A stretch of DNA of 63,847 nucleotides from Actinomycetales bacterium (GTDB lineage: Bacteria > Actinomycetota > Actinomycetes > JAJZTN01), in contig JBQCDV010000155.1 in assembly GCA_051960855.1 (NCBI GenBank), forward strand, positions 1 through 63,847, written 5' to 3'. The translations under genes and the position numbers were made by a program. Shown piece by piece: positions 19,326-30,864 of this stretch. Within the stretch, counting starts at the first letter, position 1. Every line of letters begins with the position of its first letter. The notes under the pieces are model-generated. The model was given only the letters and a program-made list of their open reading frames with translations, made no database searches and was not told where the DNA came from.

Positions 19326-20246
19326 GTGACCGAGTATCCCGAGATCGTCGTCGTCGGCAGCGCCAACGTCGACCTCGTCGCAAGCGTTGTCTCTCTCCCC
19401 CGCCCGGGTGAGACCGTCCTGGCCCAGTCCTATGCGGAGTATCCCGGCGGCAAGGGTGCCAACCAGGCAATCGCCGCAGCCCGGCTGGGACGCCGCGTCG
19501 CCTTCATCGGCCGCGTGGGCGAGGACGCAGCAGCCGACCTAGTGCGTGACGCGCTAGCGCAGGAGGGCGTCGACGTAGCCAGGCTGTCGCCGACGAGCGG
19601 CGCGGCGACGGGGCGTGCGCTGATCGCGGTCGACGCAGCCGCAGAAAACTCGATCGTCGTCGTTCCAGGTGCTAACGCCGCGCTCACAGCCGAGGACGTC
19701 GCGTCGCAGGAGCACCTGCTGGCTGGAGCGGCGGTTGTCGTCGCCCAGCTCGAGGTCCCTCTCGAGACGGTGCACCGGGCGGCATCTCTGGCACAGGGTC
19801 GATTCCTCCTCAACCCCGCCCCGGCCACTCGCCTCGACCCTGAGCTGCTCGACCTGGTCGACGTGCTGGTCGTCAACGAGGGCGAGTTCGGCGTCGTGAC
19901 CGGAGTGGCCGTGCCCGACGCCCTGCAGACATTGGGCGACGTCCTCTCGGATGTGGCCCTGCCCTGTGCGGTGGTCATCACCCTCGGCGGACGAGGCGCT
20001 GCCGTGTGGCAGCACGGTGACGTGGCGATTGTCCCCGCGCCACCGGTCGACGTCGTCGACACGACTGGCGCGGGCGACACCTTCGTTGGCGCACTCGCCG
20101 ACGGTCTCGTCCGGGGCTTGCCGCTCGCGGAAGCGGCCCGGTGGGCGGTCGCCGCCGCGTCCCTCTCCACGCTGGCGCTCGGAGCAACCAGCGGCATGCC
20201 AGCGGCCGACCGCGTGCACGAGCTGCTCGCACAGCAGCAGGGATGA
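19326..20246 (+). CDS. rbsK: Ribokinase (PfkB family)
   Basis: VVGSANVDL, PGGKGANQAIAAARLG, NPAPA, VNEGE, DTTGAGDTF. Confidence 0.88.
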   Translation: MTEYPEIVVVGSANVDLVASVVSLPRPGETVLAQSYAEYPGGKGANQAIAAARLGRRVAFIGRVGEDAAADLVRDALAQEGVDVARLSPTSGAATGRALIAVDAAAENSIVVVPGANAALTAEDVASQEHLLAGAAVVVAQLEVPLETVHRAASLAQGRFLLNPAPATRLDPELLDLVDVLVVNEGEFGVVTGVAVPDALQTLGDVLSDVALPCAVVITLGGRGAAVWQHGDVAIVPAPPVDVVDTTGAGDTFVGALADGLVRGLPLAEAARWAVAAASLSTLALGATSGMPAADRVHELLAQQQG

Positions 20247-20257
20247 GCAGTCCGAGC

Positions 20258-20296
20258 AGCTGAGGCGACAGCCGGACGCAGGCTGTCGCCTCAGCT
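20258..20296. terminator. Bidirectional terminator hairpin
   Basis: AGCTGAGGCGACAGCC-N7-GGCTGTCGCCTCAGCT, perfect 16-bp stem between convergent rbsK and dhaL. Confidence 0.8.
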
Positions 20297-20303
20297 TCGG
20301 ACG

Positions 20304-20927
20304 TCAGCTCAGCGCATTCTGCAGGCTCTTGAGAAACAGCACGTAGGCGGTGGCGCCGGGGTCGGGGTGACCGGAGCCACGCTCTCCGACCCAGGCTGCC
20401 CGGCCTCGCCGACCTGCCTGATCGCGCGTCTCCTCGACGCCCTTCTCGGCGGCGGCGACCATCGCTGTCAGTGCGTCGTTCTTGTTGTCGCGCAAGGCGT
20501 CGAGGCTCGGCGCGAGCGCGTCCAGCACCGTCTTGTCACCGAGCTCTGCCTTCCCCCGCTCGGCGATGCGAGCCATGGCAGCCCGGCCCACTCGCTCGGC
20601 GAGCGCGTCATCCCATTCCGAGGCATCCCCCACCTCCTTCGAAGCGGCGAGGAGCCCGGCCCCCACGAGCGCCGCCATCGTCGAGGGGTTGGCCTTCGCG
20701 AAAGCGGCGCCGGCGCTGCGCAGCAGAGCCCCGACGGTCTCGGGCGGGTTCTCCTTCAGCGCCTGCCGGATCGCCTCCGAGCCCTTGTCCACGGTGATCC
20801 CCAGGTCACCGTCTCCCACGGCCGCATCGAGGTCCCGCAGGGTCTCCCGATGGCTCGATAGGTTCTGTAGTGCCGAGTCGAGCACGGCCACGACCTCGTC
20901 CACTCGCATGGCTCGACCTGCGCTCAC
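20304..20927 (-). CDS. dhaL: Dihydroxyacetone-kinase-family L subunit (DAK2 domain)
   Basis: LDAAVGDGDLG, GKAELGDKTVLDAL, GRAAWVGER..GHPDPGA. Confidence 0.92.
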   Translation of the reverse strand: MSAGRAMRVDEVVAVLDSALQNLSSHRETLRDLDAAVGDGDLGITVDKGSEAIRQALKENPPETVGALLRSAGAAFAKANPSTMAALVGAGLLAASKEVGDASEWDDALAERVGRAAMARIAERGKAELGDKTVLDALAPSLDALRDNKNDALTAMVAAAEKGVEETRDQAGRRGRAAWVGERGSGHPDPGATAYVLFLKSLQNALS

Positions 20928-28667: not shown

Positions 28668-28726
28668 CTCGATCGCTCGTCCGCCCAGCGGATCCCCTGC
28701 ACATCACTTCTTCTGGAGTTGCCCTC

Positions 28727-29728
28727 ATGAAGGCTGTCGTTCTCGAATCCCTTCGACCGATCGAAGAGAATCCCCTGTCCTACAAGGAGGTCGAGCGTCC
28801 GACCGCCGGTCCGGGAGAGCTGCTCATCCAGGTCGCCGCGTGCGGCGTGTGCCGGTCCAACCTGCACATGATCGAGGGTGACTGGGCACCGGCGACTCCG
28901 TCCTTCACTCCGATCATCCCCGGCCACGAGGTGGTCGGGACTGTCGCCGAGGTCGGCGCAGGGGTGGACACGTTCGTCCCGGGAGACCGCGTCGGGGTGC
29001 AGCCGCTGTTCTCCACCTGCGGTCACTGCCGCTACTGCCTGTCCGGGCTGGATCACCTGTGCCAGTCCAAGGAGATCACCGGCGAGTCCGTGAACGGCGG
29101 CTACGCCGAGTTCATGGTGTCCAAGGCCGCTCACACCTACCCGCTGCCCGACAACCTCGACTTCGCCGAGGCCGCTCCCCTCTTCTGCCCCGGCATCACC
29201 GCCTACGGCAGCGTGGCGAAGGCCGAGCTCGCGCCGGGCAAGTCCGTCGCCATCTTCGGCATGGGCGGGGTCGGGCACATGGTTCTGCAGATGGCGGCAC
29301 TGTTCGGCGCCGACGTCTTCGCCGTCAGCCGTGGCCGCAACCACCTCGAGCTCGCCGAAGAGCTGGGCGCGACCGGTGTGGCCGCCGAGGAGGCCGATGA
29401 GGTCCTGGGAGCGCGCGGTGGCGTGGACGCATCGATTGTCTTCGCCCCCTCCGACGCCGTCGTCCAGCAGGCGCTGCGGCTGACGCGACCGGGCGGCACC
29501 GTCGTCGTGGGTGTCAACGGCAATGTGGGCCCGCTGCCCTTCGCCACCGAGAAGACGGTCGTCGGCTCCCTCCTCGGCACTCGCCAGCAGATGCTCGACG
29601 TCCTCGCGCTCGCAGCTGCCGGCAAGATCAGGGCCAACTGCGAGACGTTCCCCCTCGAAAACGCCGCCGACGCCCTACAGAAGCTGAAGGCCGGCGAGGT
29701 CCGCGCGCGCGCCGTTCTCGTCGTCTGA
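28727..29728 (+). CDS. Zinc-dependent alcohol dehydrogenase (AdhP-like)
   Basis: CGVCRSNLH, PGHEVVG, CGHCRYCLSG..HLC structural Zn, GMGGVG. Confidence 0.92.
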   Translation: MKAVVLESLRPIEENPLSYKEVERPTAGPGELLIQVAACGVCRSNLHMIEGDWAPATPSFTPIIPGHEVVGTVAEVGAGVDTFVPGDRVGVQPLFSTCGHCRYCLSGLDHLCQSKEITGESVNGGYAEFMVSKAAHTYPLPDNLDFAEAAPLFCPGITAYGSVAKAELAPGKSVAIFGMGGVGHMVLQMAALFGADVFAVSRGRNHLELAEELGATGVAAEEADEVLGARGGVDASIVFAPSDAVVQQALRLTRPGGTVVVGVNGNVGPLPFATEKTVVGSLLGTRQQMLDVLALAAAGKIRANCETFPLENAADALQKLKAGEVRARAVLVV

Positions 29729-29776
29729 GCCAGCTCCTGCGCCTCACCTCGACCACTTCAACCCAAGGGACCCGAC

Positions 29777-30445
29777 GTGCTCCTCGCACAGCTTCGCGCC
29801 GACGTCGCCAACGCCGGGCGCGCACTCGTCACCGCCGGACTTGTGCGAGGCACGTCGGGAAACGTCTCCGCCCGCGACTCCGACAGCGGCCTCATCGCCG
29901 TGACGCCCACCGGTGCCCCCTACGAATCGCTCGCGCCAGAGGACATCGTGGTCACGGATCTCGAGGGCGCCGTCGTGGAGGGGGTCTGGGAGCCGACCTC
30001 CGAGCTCGGGCTGCACGCGGCTGTCTACCGCGCGCGCCCGGAGGTCGGGGCCGTCGTGCACACACACTCGCCCTACGCAACGACGTTCGCCGTCCTGGGT
30101 GAGGCCCTGCCGCCTGTCCACTACATCCTCGCGAAAGCCGGGACGACCGTGGAGGTGGCGCCCTACGCGCGCTACGGCACCGCGGAGCTCGCGTCCAACT
30201 GCGTGACCACGATGGGTGCGAGCAACGGCGTCCTGCTCGCGAACCACGGGGTCGTGGCCGTCGGCGCCCGACTCTCGGCCGCGATGGCGGTGGCAGAGGC
30301 GATCGAGACGACCGCCGAGCTCGCCTGGCGTGCCCGCGTGATCGGCACGCCGCAGGTCCTCAACGAGGAGCAGATGGAGGCCGTTGCCAGGGACTTCGCC
30401 TCCTATGGTCAATCCAAGCGTCGAGCCACGGAGCAGTCATGTTGA
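29777..30445 (+). CDS. Class II aldolase, FucA/DrdA/Ald2-like
   Basis: GTSGNVS.R, TPTG, PTSE..LH, VVHTHS, LLANHG (Zn His triad plus catalytic Glu). Confidence 0.9.
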   Translation: MLLAQLRADVANAGRALVTAGLVRGTSGNVSARDSDSGLIAVTPTGAPYESLAPEDIVVTDLEGAVVEGVWEPTSELGLHAAVYRARPEVGAVVHTHSPYATTFAVLGEALPPVHYILAKAGTTVEVAPYARYGTAELASNCVTTMGASNGVLLANHGVVAVGARLSAAMAVAEAIETTAELAWRARVIGTPQVLNEEQMEAVARDFASYGQSKRRATEQSC

Positions 30446-30864
30446 AGGGAATCGACCCACTCGTCACGCCCGAGCTGCTCCACGGCCTGGCGGCCATGGG
30501 ACACGGTGACGTCCTCGCACTGGTCGACCGAAACTACCCGTCGGCGTCCAGTGACCGACCGGTCATCCGACTGGCGGGTGCGGACCTGATGGGCGCGGCA
30601 GCTGCGATCTCGAGCCTGCTGCCGATCGACACCTTCGTCGACCGCCCCGTCGCCGTCATGCAACCGGTCGACGGTTCCCCCGAGCTGCCGGCCGTGCAGC
30701 GCGATGTCCTCGAGATCCTCGAGGAGGCCGAGGGTCGGCCACTGGGAGTGGAACAGGTGGAGCGGCTGTCGTTCTACGAGCGCGTCCGCCACGCACGCTT
30801 CGTCGTGGAGACGTCGGAGAGCCGACCCTACGGCTGCCTGCTCATCACTAAGGGCGTCATCTGA
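30439..30864 (+). CDS. RbsD/FucU family mutarotase
   Basis: MLKGI.PL..PELL..LA.MGHGD...L.D.NYP, FYER, TSE.RPYGC. Confidence 0.9.
   Translation: MLKGIDPLVTPELLHGLAAMGHGDVLALVDRNYPSASSDRPVIRLAGADLMGAAAAISSLLPIDTFVDRPVAVMQPVDGSPELPAVQRDVLEILEEAEGRPLGVEQVERLSFYERVRHARFVVETSESRPYGCLLITKGVI

Follow-up and report, generated by a model that had tools for sequence, protein, structure and literature searches.

We describe a twelve-gene locus (positions 19,326 to 30,864) on a 63,847-nt stretch (positions 1 to 63,847) of contig JBQCDV010000155.1 of an Actinomycetales bacterium (assembly GCA_051960855.1; the whole stretch is called the window below), which we read, with moderate confidence, as a repressor-controlled divergon for the uptake of a ribose-configured sugar and its breakdown through the dihydroxyacetone phosphate (DHAP) shunt, with 5-deoxy-D-ribose and 5-methylthio-D-ribose as the presumed substrates. 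These two sugars, scavenged from soil, are most likely the substrates, and they are the only ones shown for any cluster of an MtnK kinase, an MtnA isomerase and a class II aldolase. The annotation makes this assignment look safer than it is, with ribose or an allose-like hexose also being candidates. A DHAP shunt that is coupled to import and has its own repressor is a kind of system already known. What is new is a conserved block of transporter genes and the two-subunit dihydroxyacetone (DHA) kinase genes dhaK and dhaL (together DhaKL) that accompanies the shunt enzymes, the lineage-specific status of the alcohol dehydrogenase (ADH), FucU and ribokinase-like genes, and a complete ribose-binding-protein (RBP) pocket in the substrate-binding protein (SBP) of the importer. 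An earlier note on this DNA had proposed a regulated, import-coupled catabolic shunt; the shunt enzymes, the built-in importer and the shared control region of that proposal are supported, while its novelty and a ligand restricted to 5-substituted pentoses are not.

In the pathway that we favour, whose enzyme steps are drawn from family membership and from the characterised systems of Bacillus thuringiensis, Rhodospirillum rubrum and Escherichia coli, a GntR/HutC repressor would act on a palindrome between two back-to-back promoters, and a lipoprotein SBP with a CUT2 ATP-binding cassette (ABC) transporter would import the sugar. MtnK would then place a phosphate on the anomeric hydroxyl of the furanose, MtnA would convert the aldose-1-phosphate to the ketose-1-phosphate, and a DrdA-like class II aldolase would split the latter into DHAP and a short aldehyde, which a zinc-dependent ADH would reduce in the lineage of the window. 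DhaKL belongs to the conserved core of this system, and the published shunt gives it no role.

Conservation of the cluster

Loci (labelled L001 onwards) were gathered by scanning a genome collection with MtnK and by tblastn of all twelve proteins, and a metagenome scan with the SBP gave 68 loci in two forms. Two metagenome-assembled genomes (MAGs; L001 and L002, Motilibacteraceae and Intrasporangium) repeat the full twelve-gene order, with identities of 74-94%. The actinobacterial form (type A) has aldolase-adh-gntR divergent from mtnA-SBP-ATPase-permease-mtnK-dhaK-dhaL, with a variant (L096, L097) that carries a PfkB kinase, the aldolase and the ADH downstream of dhaL and in its orientation. 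The other form (type B) runs along a single strand as gntR-mtnK-mtnA-aldolase-SBP-ATPase-permease-dhaK-dhaL and was assigned by exact-sequence look-up to Paraburkholderia (P. graminis, P. caledonica, P. strydomiana, and P. kirstenboschensis). A survey of cluster conservation, which the earlier note had suggested as a check, recovered the whole core: mtnK, mtnA, aldolase, ATPase, permease, dhaK, and dhaL are all present in 18/18 fully flanked metagenome loci (at least 4.3 kb upstream and at least 5.6 kb downstream of the SBP start), and dhaK is present in all 28 metagenome loci with enough downstream sequence. The juxtaposition of the cluster genes is not by chance, with the twelve-gene set recurring in two MAGs and the core in dozens of metagenome loci.

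The remaining genes vary. Among the 18 fully flanked loci, the ADH was found in four, the ribokinase-like gene in one and fucU in none. The zinc-dependent ADH is present in the actinobacterial lineage only and fucU was seen only in the window's own lineage (the window and L001), while the ribokinase-like gene is 74% identical in L001 and L002 and absent from L083, L088-L095 and type B; the PfkB kinase inside the L096/L097 operon is a different one, 42% identical to that of the window. ADH, FucU, and ribokinase are lineage-specific extras, and the earlier view that a mutarotase, an ADH and DhaKL had been added to a shunt holds for the first two, as variable extras, and fails for DhaKL, which belongs with the transporter to the best-conserved block. 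Orthologues of the window's GntR (56-89% identity) stand divergent in all type A loci, and the Paraburkholderia operon is headed by a GntR/UTRA gene that is 30% identical to the window regulator.

Identities between the window and Paraburkholderia fall into two groups. The SBP (~65%), ATPase (~64%), permease (~64%), DhaK (~72%), and DhaL (~54%) are closer than MtnK (~38%), MtnA (~44%), and the aldolase (~39%); the type B aldolase falls in a different FucA subgroup from that of the window, and the Paraburkholderia MtnK is a highly canonical member of its family (506 bits). Because the identities of the importer and DhaKL exceed those of the three shunt enzymes, the importer and DhaKL have moved between phyla as a unit. 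The shunt enzymes that this unit has been combined with differ in their origin, and the gene orders differ as well, which argues strongly for a functional tie of transporter, DhaKL and shunt and shows DhaKL to be part of the core and no add-on.

Other arrangements were also recovered. A Brevibacillus MAG (L007) has DeoR-aldolase-mtnK-mtnA-SBP-ATPase-permease-dhaK-dhaL, and B. fluminis (L046) has the shunt and an ABC transporter without DhaKL. In Jatrophihabitans lederbergiae (L003, 8515-16912), a gntR orthologue (60%) is divergent from mtnK-dhaK-dhaL, and dhaL is followed by a gene of the metallo-beta-lactamase fold and by another, different CUT2 ABC system. A search with DhaK led to one locus (L087) that holds only GntR-ADH / SBP-ATPase-permease-DhaK-DhaL, at 64-83% identity, without mtnA and mtnK. 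We considered it as an ancestral polyol/DHA module that later gained the shunt genes and rejected this, as a 17-codon mtnA remnant directly behind the operator (L087 6180-6363; VTTIEWIDGHIRILEQR, where the window MtnA starts MRTIDWADGHVVAIDQTR) marks it as a deletion derivative.

Several neighbouring features of these loci may be recorded here. In L007, bioY, bioD, and the radical-SAM biotin synthase gene bioB (11421-13752) lie directly after dhaL; BioB produces 5'-deoxyadenosine, and the adjacency of bioB to the shunt operon may or may not be meaningful. In L088, dhaL is directly followed by a fragment of a transposase and by a restriction-modification gene of MmeI type (16820-20333), which hints that the cluster is in variable DNA there, and no further conserved pathway genes were found in the L088 flanks. 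In Exiguobacterium (L058 9917-15787), mtnK and mtnA, both of the canonical salvage clade, are followed by genes for a CUT2 ABC system (SBP, ATPase, and permease), so that methionine salvage in Bacilli may have a methylthioribose importer linked to it.

The shunt enzymes

One cluster in the window holds an MtnK-family kinase, an MtnA-family isomerase and a class II FucA-like aldolase, and the DHAP-shunt enzymes named in the earlier note are supported, with MtnK and MtnA scoring above their equivalog cut-offs (Table 1) and the aldolase lying nearest to DrdA. The kinase aligns with B. subtilis MtnK (2OLC) over 340 residues (243.6 bits) and retains the HGD, DPE and twin-arginine motifs. For the aldolase, the nearest solved structure is B. 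thuringiensis DrdA, a proven 5-deoxyribulose-1-phosphate aldolase (6BTD/6BTG, 187.8 bits), ahead of the FucA of Streptococcus pneumoniae (165) and of E. coli (127), while its model scores were 221.6 for FucA PRK06833 (cut-off 264) and 212.8 for the haloarchaeal ribulose-1-phosphate aldolase NF053831 (cut-off 300). It scores below the cut-off on every FucA equivalog, as would be expected of a paralogue. The window enzymes share only 34, 38, and 34% identity with the E. coli shunt enzymes of proven function.

In the MtnK tree, one clade (support 92/96) unites the canonical salvage kinases, those of Bacillus and Enterobacterales, and outside of it fall the kinases of the window, of Paraburkholderia, and of the Brevibacillus and E. 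coli shunts; the window kinase sits within a separate actinobacterial (type A) clade, and the other shunt-linked kinases are unresolved. This topology is compatible with a shunt role, is no proof of it and does not decide the substrate. Residues separating the operon MtnKs from canonical MtnKs (e.g., B. subtilis F240->M and T342->I) occur also in the E. coli shunt kinase and were not used as evidence; the canonical set in this comparison was dominated by Enterobacterales, and such differences say little apart from ligand contacts.

Control region and expression

The two arms of the locus are separated by 63 bp, and a block at 27851-27884 on the minus (mtnA) strand, CTTGACAGACGTCAGTCGTCAGACAACTATCAC, is found at the same position and nearly unchanged in L001, L083, L087, L088 (two copies), L089, L093, and L096. 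Within this block lie a -35-like TTGACA and a near-palindrome TTGTC-N-GACAA (TTGTCTGACGA, 27858-27868, plus strand) with one mismatch, which is a perfect palindrome in L001. No second site of this kind lies in the locus, and the window has two further one-mismatch matches, a number expected by chance. The mtnA GTG is preceded, at a distance of 5 nt, by a -10-like hexamer and the gntR GTG, at 8 nt, by a TATAGT, so that the region probably comprises two leaderless back-to-back promoters sharing one operator; a scan for sigma-70 consensus promoters found nothing in the locus, and the conserved block is the sole basis for placing promoters here. GntR/HutC domains in the regulator, together with a palindromic candidate operator at a divergent promoter, are consistent with a repressor, and the shared control of the two arms that had been proposed earlier is supported by this conserved candidate operator.

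Expression data concern the Paraburkholderia form. One contig of 9,436 nt, from RNA-seq of an isolate (run X16), corresponds to L144 5954-15386, from about the gntR start to 170 nt past dhaL, which fits a single polycistronic transcript that includes dhaKL. Contigs from three metatranscriptomes (X1-X3) also cover the Paraburkholderia operon; as one of these contigs is 45 kb long, DNA carry-over is possible for the three metatranscriptomes. The window organism is represented by DNA runs only, from rhizosphere and soil metagenomes.

The importer and its binding pocket

Ribose-binding proteins are the top solved relatives of the SBP, namely 2IOY from Thermoanaerobacter (221.6 bits) and E. coli RBP (~148 bits, ~36% identity overall). 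The ligand pocket of the latter is formed by Asn13, Phe15, Phe16, Asp89, Arg90, Arg141, Phe164, Asn190, Asp215, and Gln235 (PMC2630998). All ten residues are identical in the window SBP, and likewise in nearly all 68 orthologues of types A and B, while the allose binder AlsB departs from this pocket at F16W, R90E, and F164W. Beside the pocket, the sole consistent change is that of Phe214, replaced by Leu, Val, or Ile in type A and by Ala in type B, AlsB having Thr. None of the Rbs equivalog cut-offs was reached (RbsB 178.3 vs 337, RbsA 511.4 vs 745, and RbsC 252.6 vs 398), and the Brevibacillus SBP of L007 is unrelated to that of the window (19% identity, RBP pocket residues absent).

The DHA kinase

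Both kinase subunits resemble the E. coli phosphotransferase-system (PTS) type more closely than the ATP-dependent Citrobacter kinase (284 vs 162 bits for DhaK, 73 vs 42 bits for DhaL). The equivalents of the catalytic His56, Asp109, and His218 are conserved in DhaK, DhaL is a separate subunit, and DhaK has 70-86% identity in every related locus. DhaK at 80% identity also occurs in an unrelated DeoR/FGGY/ABC operon of Blastococcus (L085), and because its identity is high across unrelated operons, a general triose-kinase role is favoured. No DhaM/EIIA-Man gene was found at the window locus nor within 10 kb in L083, L085, and L087, and none lies beside dhaL in L144, L007, and L088.

What DhaKL acts on can be approached through the other product of the aldolase, which by expected chemistry would be acetaldehyde from 5-deoxyribose, methylthioacetaldehyde from methylthioribose and glycolaldehyde from ribose; to our knowledge, none of these is a DhaK substrate. 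DhaKL may be a triose kinase for glyceraldehyde released from a ribo-configured hexose, in which case every conserved gene would be employed; it may phosphorylate C1 of an open-chain ketose such as 5-deoxyribulose, giving the aldolase a second feed; or it may handle DHA originating outside the operon. On the second of these, 5-deoxyribulose was not phosphorylated by DrdK (PMC6079011). Our working guess is that the DhaKL substrate would be an unphosphorylated triose or short open-chain ketose from the pathway (D-glyceraldehyde, DHA, or possibly 5-deoxyribulose). No relevant paper connecting MtnK with DhaK or DHA kinase came out of the literature searches, and the study that defined the 5-deoxyribose route mentions no DHA kinase, with zero occurrences of "dihydroxyacetone kinase" and "glyceraldehyde" (Beaudoin 2018, PMC6079011).

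Weighing the substrate

Several observations weigh against 5-deoxyribose and methylthioribose. These sugars have no 5-OH and can form no pyranose, so that the SBP pocket, being that of E. coli RBP, a binder of beta-D-ribopyranose, appears to fit them poorly, and a pyranase/mutarotase would have little to act on with obligate furanoses. A PTS-type DhaKL with no DhaM in any locus examined would also fit poorly, and a DHA kinase would have no job where the shunt gives DHAP directly from either sugar. Two loci lack shunt genes: no mtnA or aldolase was found within 20 kb in L003, despite its mtnK-dhaKL, and no aldolase within 10 kb in L083, where the other genes are all present.

Since 5-deoxyribose and methylthioribose cannot be pyranoses, the pocket speaks for ribose or for a sugar filling the same hydrogen-bond network. 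Two features of E. coli weaken this argument as far as 5-deoxyribose is concerned. We recovered the shunt operon of E. coli SE15, whose transporter (L158 6956-7960) is annotated as a GRP-family sugar transporter, GRP being the glucose/ribose porter family; such an annotation would tie a ribose-type carrier to the shunt in E. coli too. Moreover, E. coli K-12 given mtnK-mtnA-ald2 alone grows on 5-deoxyribose (PMC10986504), from which it follows that ordinary sugar transporters carry this sugar. An importer is thus built into the operon, as the earlier note had it, while, given the full RBP pocket, its dedication to 5-deoxy and 5-methylthio sugars is not evident.

Tentatively, and with considerable doubt, one may take the nine-gene set (GntR, MtnK, MtnA, aldolase, RBP-like ABC importer, and DhaKL) for an undescribed route for a hydroxylated ribo-configured sugar, either ribose or an allose/talose-type hexose, in which methionine-salvage-type enzymes may make the ketose-1-phosphate and DhaKL may phosphorylate the unphosphorylated half. 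If this were true, the homology-based assignment to 5-deoxyribose and methylthioribose would be wrong for a whole family of clusters that is widespread in soil.

That the sugar is D-ribose itself seems to us unlikely. The SBP would then be a true ribose importer, the MtnK homologue would make ribose-1-phosphate and the MtnA homologue ribulose-1-phosphate, which would be cleaved to DHAP and glycolaldehyde, with the ADH reducing the glycolaldehyde and the pyranase supplying furanose where FucU is present. The retention of 10/10 pocket residues at ~36% overall identity, set against the three changes in AlsB, favours this, as do the FucU/RbsD-family gene and the ribokinase-like neighbour; position 214, being Leu or Ala instead of Phe, makes for a cavity not identical to that of RBP. 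The cleavage has precedents, as E. coli FucA cleaves D-ribulose-1-phosphate in D-arabinose catabolism. The same reaction occurs in nature in haloarchaea (PMC9700705), on whose aldolase model the window enzyme scores 212.8 bits, while staying below the cut-off. B. subtilis methionine-salvage enzymes are reported to process ribose, according to a work cited in PMC6302742, whereas DrdK had no detectable ribose activity (PMC6079011). A shunt of this kind would throw away two carbons that ribokinase and the pentose phosphate pathway would retain, and it would leave DhaKL still without a role.

A ribo-configured hexose of the D-allose or L-talose type, which we also think improbable, would give every conserved gene a job, DhaKL and FucU included. 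The pyranose would be bound, converted to the furanose, phosphorylated at C1, isomerised to psicose-1-phosphate or tagatose-1-phosphate and cleaved to DHAP and glyceraldehyde, with DhaKL as triose kinase, making a bacterial counterpart of the liver fructose-1-phosphate pathway. The catalytic His/Asp/His of DhaK and its 80% identity to DhaKs of unrelated sugar-ABC operons (e.g., L085) suit a general triose kinase, the transporter and DhaKL travel between phyla as one block, and FucA-type aldolases make D-psicose-1-phosphate from DHAP and D-glyceraldehyde. At the pocket the evidence is divided: the small residue at position 214 (Leu or Ala; Thr in AlsB) may leave room for an extra carbon, but F16, R90, and F164 side with RBP and not with AlsB. 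Allose-type hexoses are rare in nature, whereas soil commonly holds the operon; hexofuranoses are not known as substrates of any MtnK homologue; and the MtnK of Paraburkholderia is very canonical, at 506 bits.

Finally, a mosaic without a common pathway, in which a ribose importer, a general DHA kinase and genes of methionine salvage or 5-deoxyribose detoxification would merely share an operon, might draw on L087, which keeps GntR-ADH / ABC-DhaKL after the loss of mtnA and mtnK, on the shunt and ABC genes without DhaKL in B. fluminis (L046), and on the occurrence of DhaKL with unrelated transporters, but is very improbable given the whole set in 18/18 fully flanked loci, its assembly from different kinase, isomerase, and aldolase lineages in different gene orders in Actinomycetota and Paraburkholderia, the start/stop codon overlaps, the one RNA contig across the operon of the Paraburkholderia relative, and the mtnA remnant that makes L087 a recent deletion derivative.

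Comparison with known systems

The kinase-isomerase-aldolase route for 5-deoxyribose was defined by Beaudoin 2018 (PMC6079011), whose Fig. 1b shows clusters from six phyla, four of them with sugar transporter genes and one with a fucose-mutarotase homologue, and whose discussion holds that such organisms may salvage exogenous 5-deoxyribose. The B. thuringiensis DrdK-DrdI-DrdA system belongs to the same three enzyme families as the window, while its published role is the disposal of an endogenous by-product. The mtnK-mtnA-ald2-transporter operon of extraintestinal pathogenic E. coli (e.g., ATCC 25922 and SE15), with its repressor MtnR (YjhU), resembles the window locus in uniting kinase, isomerase and class II aldolase with a transporter and in having a repressor of its own. 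E. coli with this shunt grows on 5-deoxyribose and 5'-deoxynucleosides (Huening et al., PMC10986504), and the operon is induced ~7.5 log2-fold by 5-deoxyribose, with a DeoR-type repressor, MtnR, and activation by CRP (PMC12632272). It differs in using a single GRP-family permease where the window has an ABC system with an SBP, in having a convergent DeoR-type regulator where that of the window is divergent and of GntR/HutC type, and in lacking DhaKL, ADH, and FucU, all three of which the window has. As the E. coli operon has a transporter, a repressor and growth, an import-coupled, regulated, catabolic DHAP shunt is already published, and to call the architecture undescribed, as the earlier note did, was an overstatement in view of both the transporters and mutarotase of Beaudoin 2018 (PMC6079011) and this operon (PMC10986504, PMC12632272).

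In the DHAP (ethylene) shunt of R. rubrum and R. palustris, methylthioribulose-1-phosphate is cleaved to DHAP and 2-(methylthio)acetaldehyde (PMC6302742). Unlike the window, this shunt starts with a phosphorylase, serves sulfur salvage and has neither importer nor DhaKL. The aldehyde of the R. rubrum-type shunt is reduced by an alcohol dehydrogenase, and the window ADH thus has a precedent. The haloarchaeal non-carboxylating pentose bisphosphate pathway employs a FucA-family aldolase that cleaves ribulose-1-phosphate to DHAP and glycolaldehyde (PMC9700705), but it is archaeal and passes through ribose-1,5-bisphosphate and ribulose-1,5-bisphosphate, and the window aldolase falls under the cut-off of its model.

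With E. coli RbsDACBK, the window shares the ten-residue pocket, the double-ABC ATPase, the RbsC-like permease and the RbsD/FucU-family and ribokinase-like genes, whereas the window operon holds MtnK, MtnA, and DhaKL in place of RbsK and has RBP position 214 changed. E. coli DhaKLM, the closest solved relative of the kinase, is likewise a two-subunit K/L kinase whose catalytic residues are kept in the window, but the window pair lies inside a sugar operon, with no DhaR, and the examined loci have no DhaM.

Implications

5-Deoxyribose and methylthioribose are by-products of S-adenosylmethionine use that are released by many cells. If the importer is of high affinity and tied to the shunt, soil and rhizosphere bacteria would compete for these sugars as a source of carbon or sulfur, which would extend the findings from extraintestinal E. 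coli. DhaKL and a ribose-type importer locked to shunt genes in three phyla are an unexplained conserved feature, and the occurrence of a ribose-type pocket and an intact DHA kinase with the shunt genes implies either an undescribed step of the shunt or a wrong substrate annotation of many "MtnK/MtnA" genes. With the Paraburkholderia form present in cultured species (P. graminis, P. caledonica, and P. strydomiana), the question is open to ordinary genetics and enzyme assays.

Gene layout of the locus

Open reading frames and family scans recovered all twelve genes, with their family labels, where the first description had placed them (Table 1), including the tightly coupled run from mtnA to dhaL, the divergent gntR-adh-aldolase-fucU arm, and the ribokinase-like PfkB gene, which is convergent with dhaL. 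Start and stop codons overlap, or gaps are short, at nearly every junction of the long operon: overlaps are 4 nt for mtnA/SBP, 1 nt for mtnK/dhaK, and 4 nt for dhaK/dhaL (7 nt for aldolase/fucU on the other arm), the permease-mtnK gap is 5 nt, and minus-strand genes overlap or lie no more than 10 nt apart except at SBP-ATPase (69 nt). The ATPase start codon is uncertain, with a gene call on L081 giving 472 aa.

Table 1. Positions in the window of the genes and the control region of the locus, with the scores that support each label
Feature	Position	Strand	Remarks
PfkB-family ribokinase-like gene	19299..20246	+	start at 19326 in the gene call of an identical contig; TIGR02152 296.8 bits, cut-off 299.65
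dhaL, ADP-binding subunit of two-subunit dihydroxyacetone kinase	20304..20927	-	PF02734; TIGR02365 132.2 bits, cut-off 138.3
dhaK, substrate-binding subunit	20924..21922	-	PF02733; TIGR02363 396.8 bits, cut-off 406.25
mtnK, MtnK-family furanose 1-kinase (predicted)	21922..23058	-	TIGR01767 370 bits, cut-off 275
CUT2 ABC permease, RbsC-like	23064..24113	-	PF02653; top NCBIfam match RbsC 252.6 bits, cut-off 398
CUT2 ABC ATPase, two ABC domains	24124..25623	-	PF00005 twice; AraG/XylG/RbsA-like 511-563 bits, under all equivalog cut-offs
Lipoprotein SBP, RBP-type pocket	25693..26805	-	PF13407 (Peripla_BP_4); N-terminal lipobox-like ...GMAAC
mtnA, MtnA-family aldose-1-phosphate to ketose-1-phosphate isomerase (predicted); opens the long operon	26802..27845	-	TIGR00512 366.6 bits, cut-off 279; PF01008
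Divergent control region, 63 bp	27846..27908	.	between mtnA and gntR
gntR, GntR/HutC-type regulator	27909..28667	+	winged helix PF00392 and UTRA effector domain PF07702
Zinc-dependent alcohol dehydrogenase / aldehyde reductase	28727..29728	+	ADH_N and ADH_zinc_N; nearest models adh_fam_2 233.5, AdhP 212.8, Ahr 210.4, each under its cut-off
Class II DHAP-dependent aldolase, DrdA-like	29777..30445	+	PF00596 185.6 bits
fucU, RbsD/FucU-family mutarotase/pyranase	30439..30864	+	PF05025 113 bits; FucU PRK15420 81.5 (cut-off 141); RbsD 26.4

The earlier note had seen no mtnB/C/D, nucleosidase or phosphorylase gene in the window, and the check on this was an indirect one: outside the cluster, in a window with a G+C content of ~70%, no salvage-like gene was matched by the open reading frames that flank mtnK/mtnA in 11 canonical salvage loci. 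Downstream of fucU, at 30885-31904, lies a gene for a DUF2157 membrane protein.

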